Below, piece after piece: positions 17,372-22,621 of a DNA stretch of 64,000 bases. Each line of letters begins with the position of its first letter. Within the stretch, counting starts at the first letter, position 1. Both the position numbers and the translations under genes were made by a program. Under the pieces are notes generated by a model. That model made no database searches. It had not been told where the DNA came from and saw only the letters and a program-made list of their open reading frames with translations. Source of the DNA: Candidatus Freyarchaeum deiterrae (GTDB taxonomy: Archaea; Asgardarchaeota; Jordiarchaeia; Jordiarchaeales; Jordiarchaeaceae); assembly GCA_037305845.1 (NCBI GenBank), contig CP147778.1:1984001-2048000 (forward strand). The letters are read 5' to 3'.

Positions 17372-17647
17372 ATGTTTAATATGCCGAGTTCTAAAAAGAA
17401 GGAAAGTGGAATGGATGTTAAACCTGACCGTACATTAGATGCTATTGGACTTTACTGTCCAGAACCAATATTCAGAACAAAAGAGGAGATTGAAAAAGTA
17501 GAAGTAGGCCAAGTCTTGGAGATTCTAGCCGATGATCCGGCTGCAGAGGAAGACATTACCCGATGGGCCAAAAGAACCGGAAATCAGGTTTTAAAATATG
17601 AAAAGGATGGACGAACACTTCGATTTTTGGTGAAAAGATTAAAATAA
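17372..17647 (+). CDS. tusA: Sulfur carrier TusA/SirA family
   Basis: LDAIGLYCPEP, GQVLEILADDPAA..DI..W. Confidence 0.92.
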   Translation: MFNMPSSKKKESGMDVKPDRTLDAIGLYCPEPIFRTKEEIEKVEVGQVLEILADDPAAEEDITRWAKRTGNQVLKYEKDGRTLRFLVKRLK

Positions 17648-18034
17648 ATTGAATACCTGAAAAACAAATAAAAAAGATCTGACTAGCAAGAAACATTATA
17701 CAGATAAGGCTAAGCTTTCTCTCTAAAATACTATTACACTCTTTACTCAAATATTAGTGAGCTGCATGGACATAACTTTCTATATACATAATCCTTATTT
17801 CAGAGAGCGATAACAGTAAAAGTCAATCGGAAAAGATAATAATTGGAATATAACCATCTCTTGGAAATAATAAATTAAATATTATAGACTTACGCAAGCT
17901 TCTAGGCCGTTTAAAACTTCTGAAACCTGTACACTAGGAAAAACTCGACATGAAATAATTAGTGTGAAGGTACAAGCCACATAATACTAGAAGCAATAAC
18001 AATACTATAAAAAAATTTTTGTGAGGGATAAGCG

Positions 18035-19273
18035 TTGGAGGAAAAAGATGATTCTTGTGAAGTTCCAAATTTGGAATCAATTAAAGAGGAGGAGAAGCCA
18101 ACCCGAACAGTCTTCATAGATTACGTGTCAGGCAAGCCAGTAGACGAGCGAGTATTGGAAGCCATGCAACCGTACCACAGGGAAATTTTTGGTAATCCTT
18201 CTTCTTTACATATTTTTGGTGACCCACCAGTTGAGGCAATGGAGGATGCTAGAAAAAAGGTTGCCGACCTAATAGGCGCCAAAGATCCCAAAGAAATCGT
18301 ATTCACCTCTGGGGCAACAGAGTCCAACAATCTAGCACTAAAAGGAGTAGCCTTCAGAAACCAGAAAAAGGGAACCCACATTATAATATCCGCTCTAGAA
18401 CACATCTCAATCATAAACATAGCCAAAGACCTCGAAAAATTTGGCTTCAAGACCACACAAGTTGGAGTAGACAAATACGGAATCGTGGAATTCGACAAAT
18501 TAGAGAAACAAATCAAACCCGAAACACTCCTCATATCCATAAACTATGCCAACAACGAAATAGGAACCATAGAACCCGTAAAAGAAATCTCGAAAATGGC
18601 CCACGACCATAACGTATACCTGCACATGGACGCCGTAGCAGCCGAAGGACAGATACCCATTGATGTTCAAAAAGACGGAGTAGACCTACTAACACTATCC
18701 TCAAACGACATCTACGGACCACGCGGAATGGGAGCACTCTATATTAAAAACGGTGTCATGATAGAGCCCATAATACAGGGAGGCGGACAAGAAAGAGGGC
18801 TAAGATCAGGAACAGAAGACATACCCAGCATAGTAGGCATGGGGAAAGCCGCAGAAATCGCCAAAAAAGAAATGAAGAAAGACAGCACCAGAATACAAAA
18901 AATGAGAGACAGAATAATAAGCACCGTACTGGACACAATAGACAAATCATACCTTGACGGACACCCCACTCAGAGACTGCCCAACAACGCGCACTTCAGA
19001 TTCGACTACGTAGAAGGGGAAGCGATACTCCTAAGCCTAAACATGAGAGGAATAGCGGTATCAACCGGTTCGGCCTGCGCAGCAAAAAGACTAGAAGCCT
19101 CACACGTACTCTTATCTCTAGGGCTTCTAAAAGAAGAAACACATGGATCCCTAGAGTTAACACTAGGAAAGTACAACACAGAAGAAGACGTGGACTACGT
19201 ATTGGAGGCTCTACCACCAGTGATAGAGCGGCTCAGGAAACTATCCCCACTAACCCCAAAAAACGAAAAATAA
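18035..19273 (+). CDS. iscS: IscS/NifS-family cysteine-desulfurase homologue with the PLP Lys replaced by Asp
   Basis: GNPSSLH, FTSGATESNN, ANNEIGT, GGGQERGLRSGT, STGSAC; SSNDIYGPRG in place of SxHKxYGPKG. Confidence 0.93.
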   Translation: MEEKDDSCEVPNLESIKEEEKPTRTVFIDYVSGKPVDERVLEAMQPYHREIFGNPSSLHIFGDPPVEAMEDARKKVADLIGAKDPKEIVFTSGATESNNLALKGVAFRNQKKGTHIIISALEHISIINIAKDLEKFGFKTTQVGVDKYGIVEFDKLEKQIKPETLLISINYANNEIGTIEPVKEISKMAHDHNVYLHMDAVAAEGQIPIDVQKDGVDLLTLSSNDIYGPRGMGALYIKNGVMIEPIIQGGGQERGLRSGTEDIPSIVGMGKAAEIAKKEMKKDSTRIQKMRDRIISTVLDTIDKSYLDGHPTQRLPNNAHFRFDYVEGEAILLSLNMRGIAVSTGSACAAKRLEASHVLLSLGLLKEETHGSLELTLGKYNTEEDVDYVLEALPPVIERLRKLSPLTPKNEK

Positions 19274-19362
19274 AGCCCAACACAGTGTTCTACTTTCCTC
19301 TTACTTTTTAATCTCATCCTTGCCCCTAACATTTAATAAATTTAATCTTATCTAAATATCGC

Positions 19363-19773
19363 ATGGCAGCAGGCTATTCAATTAAATCATTAATAGAAAA
19401 ACTTGGAATTAGAGAAAGTTACAAAATTATCATTCTTAACCCTCCTAAGAATTACGGCGACACATTAGGAGAATTGCCAAAAAATGTCACTGTAACGAAT
19501 AAGCTAAAAGGGCCATTAAATTTTATTCATTTCTTCACCAAAAAAAGAGAAGAATTAGAAACCAAATTTCCAATCCTAAAACACGAACTTTCACGAACAG
19601 GAGTACTTTGGATTTCCTGGCCAAAGGTCTCATCAAAAATAGAAACTGATCTCAATGAAAATATAGTCAGAGAAATTGGACTGAAAAATGGCTTGGTAGA
19701 TGTAAAAATTATCGCTATAGATGGAGTCTGGTCGGGCCTGAAGTTCGTCTATAGATTGAAAGATAGAAAATAA
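19363..19773 (+). CDS. DUF3052-like protein
   Basis: GYS..SL..KLGI, LWISWPK.SSK..TDL.E..VR...L..GLVDVK..A.D..WSGLKFV.R. Confidence 0.8.
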   Translation: MAAGYSIKSLIEKLGIRESYKIIILNPPKNYGDTLGELPKNVTVTNKLKGPLNFIHFFTKKREELETKFPILKHELSRTGVLWISWPKVSSKIETDLNENIVREIGLKNGLVDVKIIAIDGVWSGLKFVYRLKDRK

Positions 19774-20008
19774 ATTTTTTGGGGTATAACTGGGAGAATA
19801 CGGAAATGAAACGTTTTTTTGAAATTGGCACGATAATGTTTATAAGGAACCTTCTGGTGTTTTAAATTGTGAGTTAACAATTGTAAAGAAAATCAACCAA
19901 AAACGAAAAGAAAAAAAGAAACCAAAAACACATAGAAAGTGGGAGAGGGAAAAAAACAAATTAAGGTAATCACACATAAAAATTGAATAATTATGGGAGG
20001 AATAAAAA

Positions 20009-21355
20009 TTGAAACCGACACAATATACTGAAAAAGTAAAAGAGCACTTTAAAAACCCGAAAAATGTAGGAGAAATACCAGACGCTGACGGCGTGGGAAT
20101 GGTAGGAAACCCCCTGTGCGGCGATATGATGCAGATGAACATAAAAGTCTCAAAAGACGGACGATTGGAAGATATAAAGTTCAAAACGTACGGGTGTGGA
20201 AGTGCAATAGCTACCAGTAGTATGATTACTGAGATGGCTATGGGTATGACTTTGGAGGAAGCTTTGAAGATTACCCGTAAGGATGTTGCGGATGAGTTAG
20301 AAGGTTTGCCTCCGATTAAAATGCATTGCAGTAATCTTGCTGCTGATGCTTTACATGCTGCTATCGAAGATTACATGCAGCGTAAAGAGCGAGGAGAGAC
20401 TGGTCCAAGAGTGAAGGCTGAGGGCACTTTCGATTATGATGTGATTGTCATTGGGGGTGGCCCTGCGGGTCTTACTGCCGCTATTCAGGCTGCTAGCAGG
20501 GGCCTAAGTGTAGTGGTTTTTGAGGGCAAGTCTTTGGGCGGCGTTTTGTCAACTCTGTATCCCAATAAGAAGATTATGAATTTCCCAGGGTTGCCTGAGA
20601 ATACTTTGGGCCGAGACTTTGTGACCTCCATGTTGAAGCAGGCACGCGATTTGGGAGTCGAGTTGAAGAACGAGTTTGTGAGCGATGTTTCTCCAGATAA
20701 GGTTGTTAAGACTACAATGGGCGAGTATCGCGCTATGGCTGTGATTATCGCTACTGGTACTCTTCCTCTGGCATGCGGTATTCCTGGGGAAAACGAGTTC
20801 AGTGATGGTGATAAGGGCATTTATTATTATGTGACTTATCCTGAGAAGTTCATGGGTAAGCGAGTGGTGGTTTATGGTAACGGAGATCAGGCTTTGGAGT
20901 CCGCTCTAGCTCTGGAACATATTGCTGATAAACTCACCTTCATTTACAAAGAGAAGGACCTTGTGGGCTTGGACCAAGATATTAAGACGGTCAAACGGTC
21001 TGATAGGATTAAGCTTTTATCGAATACAGAACTTGTGAAGATTGAGGGCACAGACACCGTGGAGAAAGTGACTCTGCACGATTTGGGTGAAGACGAGGAC
21101 TTCGACCTAGTGGTTGACAAAGTGGTTCTCGCGGTTGGAATGAAACCCAATACCGAAATTTACAGTAAACTGGGCGTTGAACTCGATGATAGAGGCTTCG
21201 TAAAGGTGGATAAGGATCAGAAAACCAACATCGAAGGAATTTATGCCGCCGGTGACTTAACAACCGACTTGCAGCTCTTGGTTGTGGCAATCTCTCAGGG
21301 TGCTGCTGCAGCCCATCGAGTTTCAGAGTACGTAAGGAAGCAAAAGGGTTTATAA
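20009..21355 (+). CDS. iscU: Fusion of IscU/NifU-N Fe-S scaffold with a TrxR-fold FAD/NAD(P)H oxidoreductase (FNR-like)
   Basis: N-term GNPLCGD, GCGSAIA, LPPIKMHCSNLA; C-term GGGPAG, LYP.K.I.NFPG, ATG, GNGDQA, GIYAAGD; no CxxC. Confidence 0.9.
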   Translation: MKPTQYTEKVKEHFKNPKNVGEIPDADGVGMVGNPLCGDMMQMNIKVSKDGRLEDIKFKTYGCGSAIATSSMITEMAMGMTLEEALKITRKDVADELEGLPPIKMHCSNLAADALHAAIEDYMQRKERGETGPRVKAEGTFDYDVIVIGGGPAGLTAAIQAASRGLSVVVFEGKSLGGVLSTLYPNKKIMNFPGLPENTLGRDFVTSMLKQARDLGVELKNEFVSDVSPDKVVKTTMGEYRAMAVIIATGTLPLACGIPGENEFSDGDKGIYYYVTYPEKFMGKRVVVYGNGDQALESALALEHIADKLTFIYKEKDLVGLDQDIKTVKRSDRIKLLSNTELVKIEGTDTVEKVTLHDLGEDEDFDLVVDKVVLAVGMKPNTEIYSKLGVELDDRGFVKVDKDQKTNIEGIYAAGDLTTDLQLLVVAISQGAAAAHRVSEYVRKQKGL

Positions 21356-21563
21356 ACTGGACACACAAATTCTCTAAGGGCACGCCTCCTTTATCTACCT
21401 CCTTCCTTTGGAATCCTCAATTAGTAACACCGCATTTTGAATTGCTGGCGTCTGTGTTATTAATGTTGAGGATTTGTATTGGAGGCGTGTTTCCTTTACC
21501 ATCATATCAGTTTGATGATTTCTAGATTTATTTTTTAGGCGTGACTTTTTTGGGGTTCTTATT

Positions 21564-22160
21564 ATGGTTGATTTCTGGAGTTTGGTTGAGGAAGCCGTGA
21601 ATTTTCATGGGCATATTTGTCCTGGCTTGTTGATTGGTGTTAGAATGGGTGTTGCTGCTATGAATCTCCTAGGCGTAGATCGAGCTTCTGATGAGGAAAT
21701 TTATGCGGTCGTTGAAAATGACAGCTGTGCACTAGACGGATTACAGGTTACTACTGGGGTTACATTTGGGAAAGGTAATTTGTCTTTTAGAGACTATGGC
21801 AAGATGGCTGCTACTTTTTACCTTCGAACAGAGAAGAAAGCAGTTAGGCTCCTTTTTAAACCTGATAGTTTCGGAAAGATTGGGAATGGAGATTTAGGTG
21901 AAGCTATTCATGAAGAGAACAAAGAAATAAAAATGTCAAAGTTTGCTAAGATTGCTAAGCGGTTCGGAGATTTGCCTGACGACGAGGTTTTTGAAATTAG
22001 CAATGTTGACATAGAAGAACCGAAGATGGCAGAAATTAGAAAATCAGTAAAATGCGAGAAGTGCGGAGAGGCGACCATGGAAACAAAGACGGTAATTAAG
22101 AATGGGAAGCGTTTATGTACTCCTTGTGCGGCTGGCAGGAACTATTATCGCGTTAAGTAG
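21564..22160 (+). CDS. fmdE: FmdE-family protein with C-terminal zinc finger
   Basis: FHGHICPG..IG.R, E.DSC..DG.Q..TG.TFGKGNL, CEKCGE...C.PC. Confidence 0.9.
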   Translation: MVDFWSLVEEAVNFHGHICPGLLIGVRMGVAAMNLLGVDRASDEEIYAVVENDSCALDGLQVTTGVTFGKGNLSFRDYGKMAATFYLRTEKKAVRLLFKPDSFGKIGNGDLGEAIHEENKEIKMSKFAKIAKRFGDLPDDEVFEISNVDIEEPKMAEIRKSVKCEKCGEATMETKTVIKNGKRLCTPCAAGRNYYRVK

Positions 22161-22621
22161 TAATTCCGCTCTTTTTTAACAAACGCTGGAGCCTCAGATT
22201 CAGGAATGCAGTCTGAAATCTTGATATAGGGTTTGAGATCTAGAACTGGTGTTCCGTTAAACGCGTCCAAACCTCTAACTTTCAGAACATTGTTTTTTCG
22301 ATTTTCCAGTTTCACTACTGTTAGGCCTATACAGTTTGGACGAATGGGGGATCTAGTGCTAAAAACTCCTCTGATAGTGATGTTCGGGTCGTTCCTAGGA
22401 TGCACTTTTAGTGGGAATGGTATGCCTGAGAGTTTATGTGTCCAGTAAATTACTATTATATGTGTGAAGTCTTCGATTCCTTCGAGTGCTTCTTCGAGTT
22501 CATTTTTGATAATAATTTTTGCCATGACTTCTCTCGGGTTGTAGTTGTGTTCAGGGTCAATGTCTGACTCGACATATCCTATGGGTTCGAAAACCACTTT
22601 TTCATATTTTTCGTCAGCCAT
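22145..22621 (-). CDS. tsaA: tRNA m6t6A37 methyltransferase TsaA/TrmO family
   Basis: PIG.V, GVFSTRSP.RPN.IGL, GLDA..GTPVLDLKPY. Confidence 0.92.
   Translation of the reverse strand: MADEKYEKVVFEPIGYVESDIDPEHNYNPREVMAKIIIKNELEEALEGIEDFTHIIVIYWTHKLSGIPFPLKVHPRNDPNITIRGVFSTRSPIRPNCIGLTVVKLENRKNNVLKVRGLDAFNGTPVLDLKPYIKISDCIPESEAPAFVKKERNYYLTR

Follow-up and report, generated by a model that had tools for sequence, protein, structure and literature searches.

How does a system that assembles iron–sulfur (Fe–S) clusters obtain its sulfur and electrons when its cysteine desulfurase has no catalytic lysine? The question is raised by a locus at 17372–21355 of a 64,000-nucleotide stretch of DNA (the window), positions 1984001–2048000 of the complete, single-contig (C1), 3.58-Mb genome of the Asgard archaeon Candidatus Freyarchaeum deiterrae, the closest database relatives of which carry the names Candidatus Jordarchaeaceae, Jordarchaeum and Freyrarchaeum. 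To our knowledge, the sulfur source of inactive IscS proteins of the Archaeoglobus fulgidus type has been unclear since 2012. A preliminary description of the locus had proposed a self-contained set of three genes, encoding the sulfur carrier TusA, an IscS lacking the lysine that binds pyridoxal 5′-phosphate (PLP), and an IscU fused to a flavin reductase. Pfam matches and motifs showed that all three features are real and co-oriented on the plus strand, although the picture of three successive genes needs amending: a 387-nt spacer and an unrelated gene (19363–19773) interrupt the series, which comprises four co-oriented open reading frames. The features are as follows.

17372..17647, + strand: TusA-family sulfur carrier, 91 aa (Pfam PF01206, E = 1.5e-25)
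17648..18034, no strand: AT-rich non-coding spacer between tusA and iscS*, 387 nt
18035..19273, + strand: lysine-less IscS (MisS) of the A. fulgidus IscS2 type, 412 aa, TTG start (Aminotran_5, E = 3.4e-77)
19363..19773, + strand: DUF3052-like protein, 136 aa, an insert between IscS and the fusion
20009..20389, + strand: IscU (MisU) domain, fusion residues 1–127 (NifU_N, residues 5–127, E = 9.9e-48)
20390..20434, + strand: flexible linker, fusion residues 128–142
20435..21355, + strand: flavoprotein domain of the thioredoxin-reductase fold without CxxC, fusion residues 143–448 (Pyr_redox_2, residues 143–431, E = 3e-44)
21564..22160, + strand: FmdE-domain protein with a DksA/TraR-type zinc finger (PF02663, E = 6e-39; PF01258)

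The lysine-less IscS (hereafter IscS*) has SSND at residues 222–225, where canonical enzymes have SGHK, and Asp225 (codon 18707–18709) occupies the position of the PLP lysine, preceded by Asn where those enzymes have His. The loop with the mobile cysteine is retained as STGSAC (residues 343–348, nucleotides 19061–19078; Cys348). IscS* scores below all NCBIfam equivalog cut-offs for IscS and NifS, and its closest solved relative is A. fulgidus IscS2 (4EB5, 4EB7 and 4HVK; E = 1.2e-140), which has an identical SSNDIYGP; 4R5F is the engineered Asp-to-Lys (D199K) variant of that protein. The A. fulgidus protein, the one member for which this is described, is reported to show no desulfurase activity and to ligate a [2Fe–2S] cluster on IscU through its loop cysteine (PMC7585200, citing Marinoni 2012, Yamanaka 2013 and Pagnier 2014). 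The earlier proposal that IscS* probably cannot carry out standard desulfuration but keeps its mobile cysteine agrees with these motifs and with the reported inactivity of the type (PMC7585200). Methanosarcina acetivorans IscS1 has the same lysine substitution, and the IscS1–IscU1 pair (MA0808/MA0807) includes a longer IscU1 (24.2 kDa) and has four genes without a characterised role in its cluster (PMC7585200).

The term 'atypical', which had been applied to the locus, does not hold for the IscS. SSND was present in all 120 best homologues of IscS* (representatives of 90%-identity clusters in a collection of 5.8 billion proteins); those with names were chiefly from Asgard archaea, Hadarchaea, Bathyarchaeia and 'Thaumarchaeota', with one from a Desulfosporosinus bacterium. 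ND-type IscS formed a single clade of 56 rows (SH-aLRT 99) that contained the window protein and was separate from Lys-bearing IscS. By these comparisons, lysine-less IscS of this type is already known and forms a large, common clade.

The scaffold is where the locus departs from what has been described. The fusion (20009–21355) encodes 448 aa from a TTG start that lies 8 nt 3′ of GGGAGG. Its IscU domain has the ligand residues C37, D39, C63, H106 and C107 and the LPPIK motif (100–104); the ligand residues were invariant in 21 fusions. The domain exceeded the cut-off of TIGR03419 (191.7 versus 187.9 bits), and its nearest solved relatives were 7C8M (E = 5e-54) and A. fulgidus IscU (4EB5_C, E = 1.9e-48), the latter with all ligands. 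The A. fulgidus pair (AF0564/AF0565) thus shares SSNDIYGP, STGSAC and the IscU ligands with the window pair, but its IscU is a free protein of 153 aa, whereas the window scaffold bears a flavoprotein of 306 aa and is not adjacent to iscS. Full-text searches of the published literature found no paper on an IscU–flavoprotein fusion or on a tusA–dsrE–iscS*–iscU operon and, beyond an operon drawn without explanation for M. acetivorans, none on the link with TusA and DsrE. The novelty of the window is the complete IscU–flavoprotein fusion and its relation to truncated forms.

The flavoprotein domain has the two-domain thioredoxin reductase (TrxR) fold, with FAD motifs at residues 149–154 (GGGPAG), 248–250 (ATG) and 415–416 (GD) and a GxGxxA motif of the NAD type (GNGDQA, 290–295; GGGDSA in TrxR). 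GxGxxA was invariant in the 21 aligned fusions, as were the FAD motifs save for GN in place of GD in ANME-2. Where TrxR has its redox-active CxxC (CATC), the window protein has Y..Y (YYYVTYPE, 272–279), and CxxC was missing from all 21 fusions. The position of the TrxR motif HRRxxxR is taken by YKEKDLVG (YKEKD, 313–317), and the chain ends in ...VRKQKGL, without the PYW tail of standalone relatives. Both HR..R and the PYW tail are kept in the Methanoperedens fusions and in free Asgard relatives (L099–L101) and are lost in the window genus and in ANME-2. Assignment as a thioredoxin reductase was rejected, given that CxxC and HRRxxxR are absent and that the TIGR01292 score falls below the cut-off (226.4 versus 343.45 bits). 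A ferredoxin–NADP+ reductase (FNR) of the TrxR type was likewise rejected. Such FNRs (2ZBW, 3LZW and 6GAS) share with TrxB and the window domain the two-domain fold, FAD GxGxxG, ATG, GD and GxGxxA and, like the window domain, have no redox-active CxxC, but they have an NADPH site and a C-terminal aromatic residue over the flavin, whereas HR..R and an aromatic tail are absent from the window protein. Sequence scores placed the domain closer to TrxRs (150 bits) than to FNRs (105–122 bits), and the top Foldseek matches were TrxRs and TrxR-type FNRs alike (E from about 1e-32 to 1e-28), so neither search favoured an FNR over TrxR. The LYPxK motif of the domain is presumably FNR-like. Within it lies Tyr184 (LYPNK, nucleotides 20555–20569), a position at which all 16 aligned Methanoperedens and ANME-2 fusions have Cys (LCP or FCP); Tyr is common to the genus and to the free Asgard relatives L099–L101. 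This cysteine on the flavin side of the methanotroph fusions might matter for sulfur chemistry.

We then asked whether the fused reading frame is genuine and functional. Near-identical DNA is present in metagenomes from freshwater sediment and wetland, and a contig from run X7, itself not among the runs flagged as possible sources of this DNA but from the same study as two that are (X1 and X2), covers 19989–21823 with zero differences. All five other genomes of the genus have 448-codon orthologues with a TTG start, four of them intact. Because the X7 contig is identical and same-genus orthologues of 448 codons exist, the fused frame is no assembly artefact. The fifth orthologue (L098, G004:C208) has an in-frame TAG, for which sequencing error, recent pseudogenization and codon recoding are possible explanations. 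The ratio of non-synonymous to synonymous substitution (dN/dS) within the genus was 0.04–0.10 in the IscU, FAD-N, NAD and FAD-C parts, at saturated dS and without indels, and 0.1–0.7 in the linker. Since dN/dS is low in every part of the reductase, we conclude that the complete flavoprotein on the scaffold is maintained by purifying selection. With the FAD motifs intact as well, the view that the scaffold carries its own flavin domain is supported by sequence. AlphaFold modelled the linker as disordered (pLDDT <50 at residues 131–139); given that linker and a pTM of 0.59, no domain docking, and no distance from flavin to cluster, is readable from the model. A single contig of 466 nt from one metatranscriptome library matched 20870–21335, where DNA carry-over is possible. 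Gene calls for this gene and two relatives (P0012–P0014; those of the relatives are from NCBI) begin at an internal Met and give 318–326 aa labelled 'NAD(P)/FAD-dependent oxidoreductase', leaving the IscU domain behind the TTG start unannotated.

We next examined the neighbourhoods of IscS and IscU in 88 loci with IscS upstream of IscU, a sample picked by similarity to IscU together with chosen fusions, in which related loci are not independent. TusA and/or DsrE was found within 5 kb of 61 of the 67 lysine-less IscS genes, compared with 2 of the 21 Lys-bearing ones, and one of those two loci (L063) also has a lysine-less cluster. Extended IscU proteins (16 of medium and 24 of long form) occurred solely with lysine-less IscS. 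Among the Methanosarcinia fusion loci, IscS was adjacent to and directly upstream of the fusion in 22 of 22, and a DsrE-family protein of 117–121 aa (PF02635, E = 3e-20) was encoded upstream of IscS in 21 of 22; TusA preceded DsrE in all seven loci of the ANME-2 type. Every IscS beside a long fusion had S[SA]ND and STGSAC (23 of 23, comprising the 22 Methanosarcinia loci and L096 of a sister species), as does that of the window. A functional tie between TusA and lysine-less IscS, which the preliminary description had put forward together with a call for a survey of how its three features co-occur, is therefore supported by a gene neighbourhood conserved across great phylogenetic distance.

The same partner recurs in a second group of lysine-less IscS, with GNQ, GNT, GSA, GSQ or SSV at the HK position, which is nested among Lys-bearing bacterial IscS. 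Its six loci (L039, L043, L044, L067, L069 and L079) are from Chloroflexota and Elusimicrobiota, and five of them have TusA about 1 kb 3′ of IscU. By its place in the tree, this group is a separate origin with the same TusA partner.

The window TusA has its active-site cysteine, Cys29, in a CPEP motif (residues 29–32, nucleotides 17456–17467). It scores 89.2 bits against PF01206 (cut-off 28.6) and does not reach the thresholds of the NCBIfam equivalog models for E. coli TusA and YedF. Its identity to the TusA that heads the ANME-2 tusA–dsrE–iscS*–iscU operon is 57%; the three other TusA copies in the genome matched by the ANME-2 query reach only 34–37%. These values identify the window gene as the orthologue of the ANME-2 operon TusA.

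We also asked where the complete fusion occurs and how it relates to shorter IscU forms. In a search of 40 relatives from 25 genera of the phylum, the full-length fusion was confined to the window genus, where it was present in all six genomes including the window's own. Of 251 genomes from the class to which Methanoperedens belongs, 23 also had it, and in a protein collection the architecture accounts for at least 100 clusters at 90% identity, annotated as thioredoxin reductase, NifU or IscU 2. TrxR-fold proteins lacking CxxC formed one clade in a 78-protein tree (SH-aLRT 99), without a solved member, and the reductase domains of the fusions formed one clade within it (SH-aLRT 99), in which those of the genus and those of Methanosarcinia are sister groups. 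A recent arrival of the entire locus by transfer from Methanoperedens-like archaea was not supported: the genus domain branches beside the Methanosarcinia clade and is not nested in it, and the genus IscS groups with the partners of medium-form IscU from Asgard archaea and bacteria (SH-aLRT 98). Free-standing relatives without CxxC are also encoded by other Asgard archaea and by the window's own genome; at C1:1414319–1416396, a canonical TrxR (CATC) stands divergently beside such a protein (GGGETA, HRRESFRA, PYW tail). A complementary distribution of tethered and free CxxC-less reductases was rejected, since the window's genome also has this free one (1415470–1416396).

Medium-form IscU proteins (257–278 aa) occur in the same operon in many Asgard archaea (Promethearchaeota, Loki- and Thorarchaeota), some Bathyarchaeia and several bacterial phyla. 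Their extension, homologous to residues 258–376 of the window fusion, aligned to residues 279–373 (35% identity, E = 3e-15) and passed the Pfam cut-off for Pyr_redox, and its limits coincide exactly with those of the NAD-binding subdomain. GxGxxA has lost its first glycine (DSGDNS) and the FAD domain is absent; the medium forms are probably redox-dead. In a tree of NAD subdomains, 16 of the 17 medium forms and the long fusions grouped together to the exclusion of free TrxR-fold proteins (SH-aLRT 96), and a clade of the medium forms with the genus gave a better fit than the tree from the free search and was not rejected (p-AU 0.885). Their partners point the same way: in the IscS tree, the genus IscS was sister to all partners of medium-form IscU from Asgard archaea and bacteria (SH-aLRT 98), and a single clade of all IscS partnering an extended IscU fitted better than the free tree (p-AU 0.65). 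A tree forcing all long forms into one clade was 19 log-likelihood units worse and was not rejected (p-AU 0.24). The full-length form is, by these comparisons of operon, homologous extension and IscS partner, a relative of the truncated proteins, from which it differs in being complete where they lack both FAD halves. In the TrxR fold, the FAD domain is split in two by the inserted NAD subdomain. With only this insert present in isolation, the simplest reading is that the medium forms derived from a full-length fusion by losing both FAD halves and that the genus keeps the complete state. The extensions of shorter IscU proteins in Asgard archaea and bacteria would then be flavoprotein remnants. 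Within the IscS tree, the protein of L020, attributed to 'Candidatus Nanopelagicaceae bacterium', was almost identical to that of L018 from Promethearchaeota (branches of 0.013 and 0.029), and the L020 locus is Asgard-like; this 'actinobacterial' contig is probably mis-binned.

What these parts might do together can be set against known systems. Reduction of S0 to sulfide takes two electrons, and conversion of two [2Fe–2S] clusters to one [4Fe–4S] cluster takes two more; in the bacterial ISC system, ferredoxin is the supplier of electrons. A reductase makes chemical sense beside a persulfide relay because persulfide sulfur needs two electrons. The explanation that we prefer as a whole, with our confidence balanced evenly for and against it, is that tusA–(dsrE)–iscS*–iscU is a minimal Fe–S (MIS) assembly unit of the ISC type, fed by persulfide and reduced by a flavoprotein, of which the window locus is a loosened copy, the cassette itself being widespread in anaerobes. 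In this scheme IscS* would not degrade cysteine and would form an (IscS*–IscU)2 complex as in A. fulgidus, where Cys348, by homology to that complex, could serve as both sulfur relay and cluster ligand. Sulfane sulfur would pass from TusA persulfide to Cys348, aided by a DsrE encoded elsewhere, and its ultimate source would be the genome's normal IscS or environmental sulfur. The flavoprotein, held to IscU through some 15 flexible linker residues, would supply electrons in place of ferredoxin, a role that can be likened to the possible role of the NifU central domain. In the genus, which lacks the arginine motif for NADPH, the primary reductant could equally be NADH, ferredoxin or something else; the Methanoperedens orthologues look to be of the NADPH type.

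MIS (MisS–MisU) is the least studied Fe–S assembly system, described as having no accessory carriers and unknown electron donors (PMC13066941, a 2026 review). Like MIS, the locus has an IscS-like and IscU-like pair without HscAB, ferredoxin or IscA genes, none of which was found between 13.7 and 25 kb of the window. The window and its relatives add TusA and DsrE to that description, and the window also adds the tethered flavoprotein. TusA is an established partner of IscS in E. coli (PMC13066941); here sulfur would flow from TusA to IscS*. NifU resembles the fusion in joining an IscU-type scaffold to a redox module, thought to aid reduction, in one chain (PMC13066941), but its module is a ferredoxin-like [2Fe–2S] domain followed by Nfu, whereas that of the window is a non-homologous FAD protein with a dinucleotide site. 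The locus and its relatives offer candidates for two gaps, a sulfur feed through TusA and DsrE and an electron feed through a flavoprotein covalently bound to the scaffold. The fused protein would also be a handy experimental system, since spectroscopy should be able to track its flavin, its cluster and the partner IscS within a single complex. More tentatively, and with the doubts outweighing the support, MIS as a whole may be a cysteine-independent line with its own electrons, in which the dead IscS receives persulfide sulfur from TusA and DsrE and a flavoprotein that once belonged to IscU proper reduces this sulfur at the scaffold. The genus and the Methanoperedens/ANME-2 group would then preserve the ancestral, complete form, the medium extension would be its relic, and the fusion would, if all this holds, identify the electron donor that has long been sought for MIS.

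Several observations weigh against a persulfide-fed, flavoprotein-reduced unit. The absence of the NADPH motif HR..R and of the C-terminal PYW tail from the window fusion counts here, and NAD(P)H as donor is weakened, with GxGxxA kept but HR..R found only in the Methanoperedens orthologues. Because most lineages keep a degenerate NAD subdomain and no FAD domain, the cassette works without a tethered reductase, presumably using a donor in trans or sulfide. AlphaFold (pTM 0.59) places IscU unreliably relative to the flavin. The locus genes are probably separate transcription units, as the 387-nt spacer is not conserved and the insert varies. A. fulgidus IscS–IscU has reportedly been reconstituted with free sulfide, for which no reduction of S0 would be needed. 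Parts, conservation and associations are what the analysis establishes, and the mechanism is what we infer from them.

Free sulfide is also the starting point of the alternative that survives best, which we nevertheless consider unlikely: sulfide would feed the clusters, the nearby TusA and DsrE would serve tRNA thiolation, molybdopterin synthesis or the buffering of reactive sulfur, and the flavoprotein would only couple clusters or protect the scaffold. These archaea inhabit anoxic freshwater and wetland sediments, and both MIS and SMS are able to use sulfide (PMC13066941). Carriers with other roles are also suggested by the whole-genome Pfam count of five TusA-like and nine DsrE-like places, that is, four and eight besides the locus TusA and the operon-type DsrE. 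The latter (3292236–3292619, 127 aa) is 62% identical to the ANME-2 operon DsrE, lies 1.29 Mb from the locus and stands beside genes for a PP-loop tRNA-thiolase-like protein and for methionine synthesis. Hard to explain without direct cooperation, however, is the very strong bias of TusA and DsrE towards lysine-less IscS, which recurs in a second clade.

Still less probable is that the flavoprotein is a structural or regulatory appendage heading for loss, which carries no electrons to the scaffold. The medium forms, which retain just a degenerate NAD subdomain, would fit such a course, as would the loss of HR..R and the PYW tail in the genus and the GN that replaces the FAD GD in ANME-2. Yet purifying selection in all three reductase parts equals that in the IscU domain, at saturated synonymous divergence; every FAD motif is preserved, GxGxxA does not vary and indels are absent, and the in-frame TAG of L098 affects one of five sister orthologues.

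No better placed is the idea that the unit is a persulfide or polysulfide reductase with a part in sulfur trafficking (sulfide for homocysteine or thio-cofactors) or serves the maturation of a single client such as the FmdE–zinc-finger protein, which draws on the genome's additional Lys-bearing IscS–IscU pair and SufB homologue, on the FmdE gene 3′ of the fusion in every genome of the genus and on the three IscSU pairs of M. acetivorans, the roles of which may differ (PMC7585200), but which meets an IscU with cluster ligands and LPPIK all invariant, a flavoprotein without a conserved redox Cys (Tyr184 stands where the aligned Methanosarcinia forms have Cys) and Methanosarcinia fusions with no matching FmdE beside them.

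Returning to the proposed assembly unit, the locus is not the self-contained system of the preliminary description. Its presumed DsrE partner is encoded far away, and the spacer and the variable insert split its genes. Moreover, because the genome has a canonical IscS–IscU pair, a SufB homologue (one) and further TusA and DsrE genes elsewhere, the locus is one among several Fe–S and sulfur-relay units. The pair with the canonical, Lys-bearing IscS (SGHK) is at C1:1934984–1937153 (L081 2985–5154), 66 kb upstream and outside the window. The IscU that follows this IscS (122 aa) has Asp at the first cluster Cys (GNPADGD) and Glu in place of the His before the third (NECSN), an odd pairing in which the normal desulfurase has an unusual scaffold and the dead desulfurase a normal one. 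An HTH_3 regulator with a Cys-rich C-terminal tail is encoded just upstream of this IscS. Around the operon-type DsrE (C1:3291000–3296000), the neighbours besides the PP-loop gene are MetW, MetX and O-acetylhomoserine sulfhydrylase, and a TusA-like fragment with an in-frame TAG adjoins it.

The adjacent, co-oriented four-gene order tusA–dsrE–iscS*–iscU, intact in relatives, is broken here: dsrE is missing from the locus and the insert separates iscS from iscU. A dsrE hidden in the 387-nt spacer was rejected, since each of the three frames contains stops and a tblastn comparison with DsrE gave nothing at E ≤ 10; an RNA element there was rejected for want of an Rfam match at E ≤ 1. The spacer is poorly conserved in sister species except immediately 5′ of the IscS start, and it contains a TATA-like run, TATAAAAAAA, about 25 nt upstream of that start. 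AT-rich, TATA-like stretches precede each gene start, from which it seems that the genes probably have separate promoters. The 136-aa reading frame between iscS and the fusion had no match in Pfam or NCBIfam; its nearest ESM Atlas clusters are DUF3052 (score 0.96). No counterpart was found by tblastn in the five sister-species loci, and in the only one that spans IscS to the fusion (L096) a membrane-protein gene on the opposite strand takes its place. The DUF3052-like gene is an insert outside the system.

Downstream, the gene for the FmdE–zinc-finger protein follows the fusion in all five sister-species loci, and no match to it was found beside the Methanosarcinia fusions. It is a constant neighbour at the level of the genus and a candidate for a link to the system. 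In the window and genus-wide, this gene is followed 3′ of the fusion by a convergent TrmO-like gene (together 21564–22621), and the 3′ ends of the two overlap by 16 nt.

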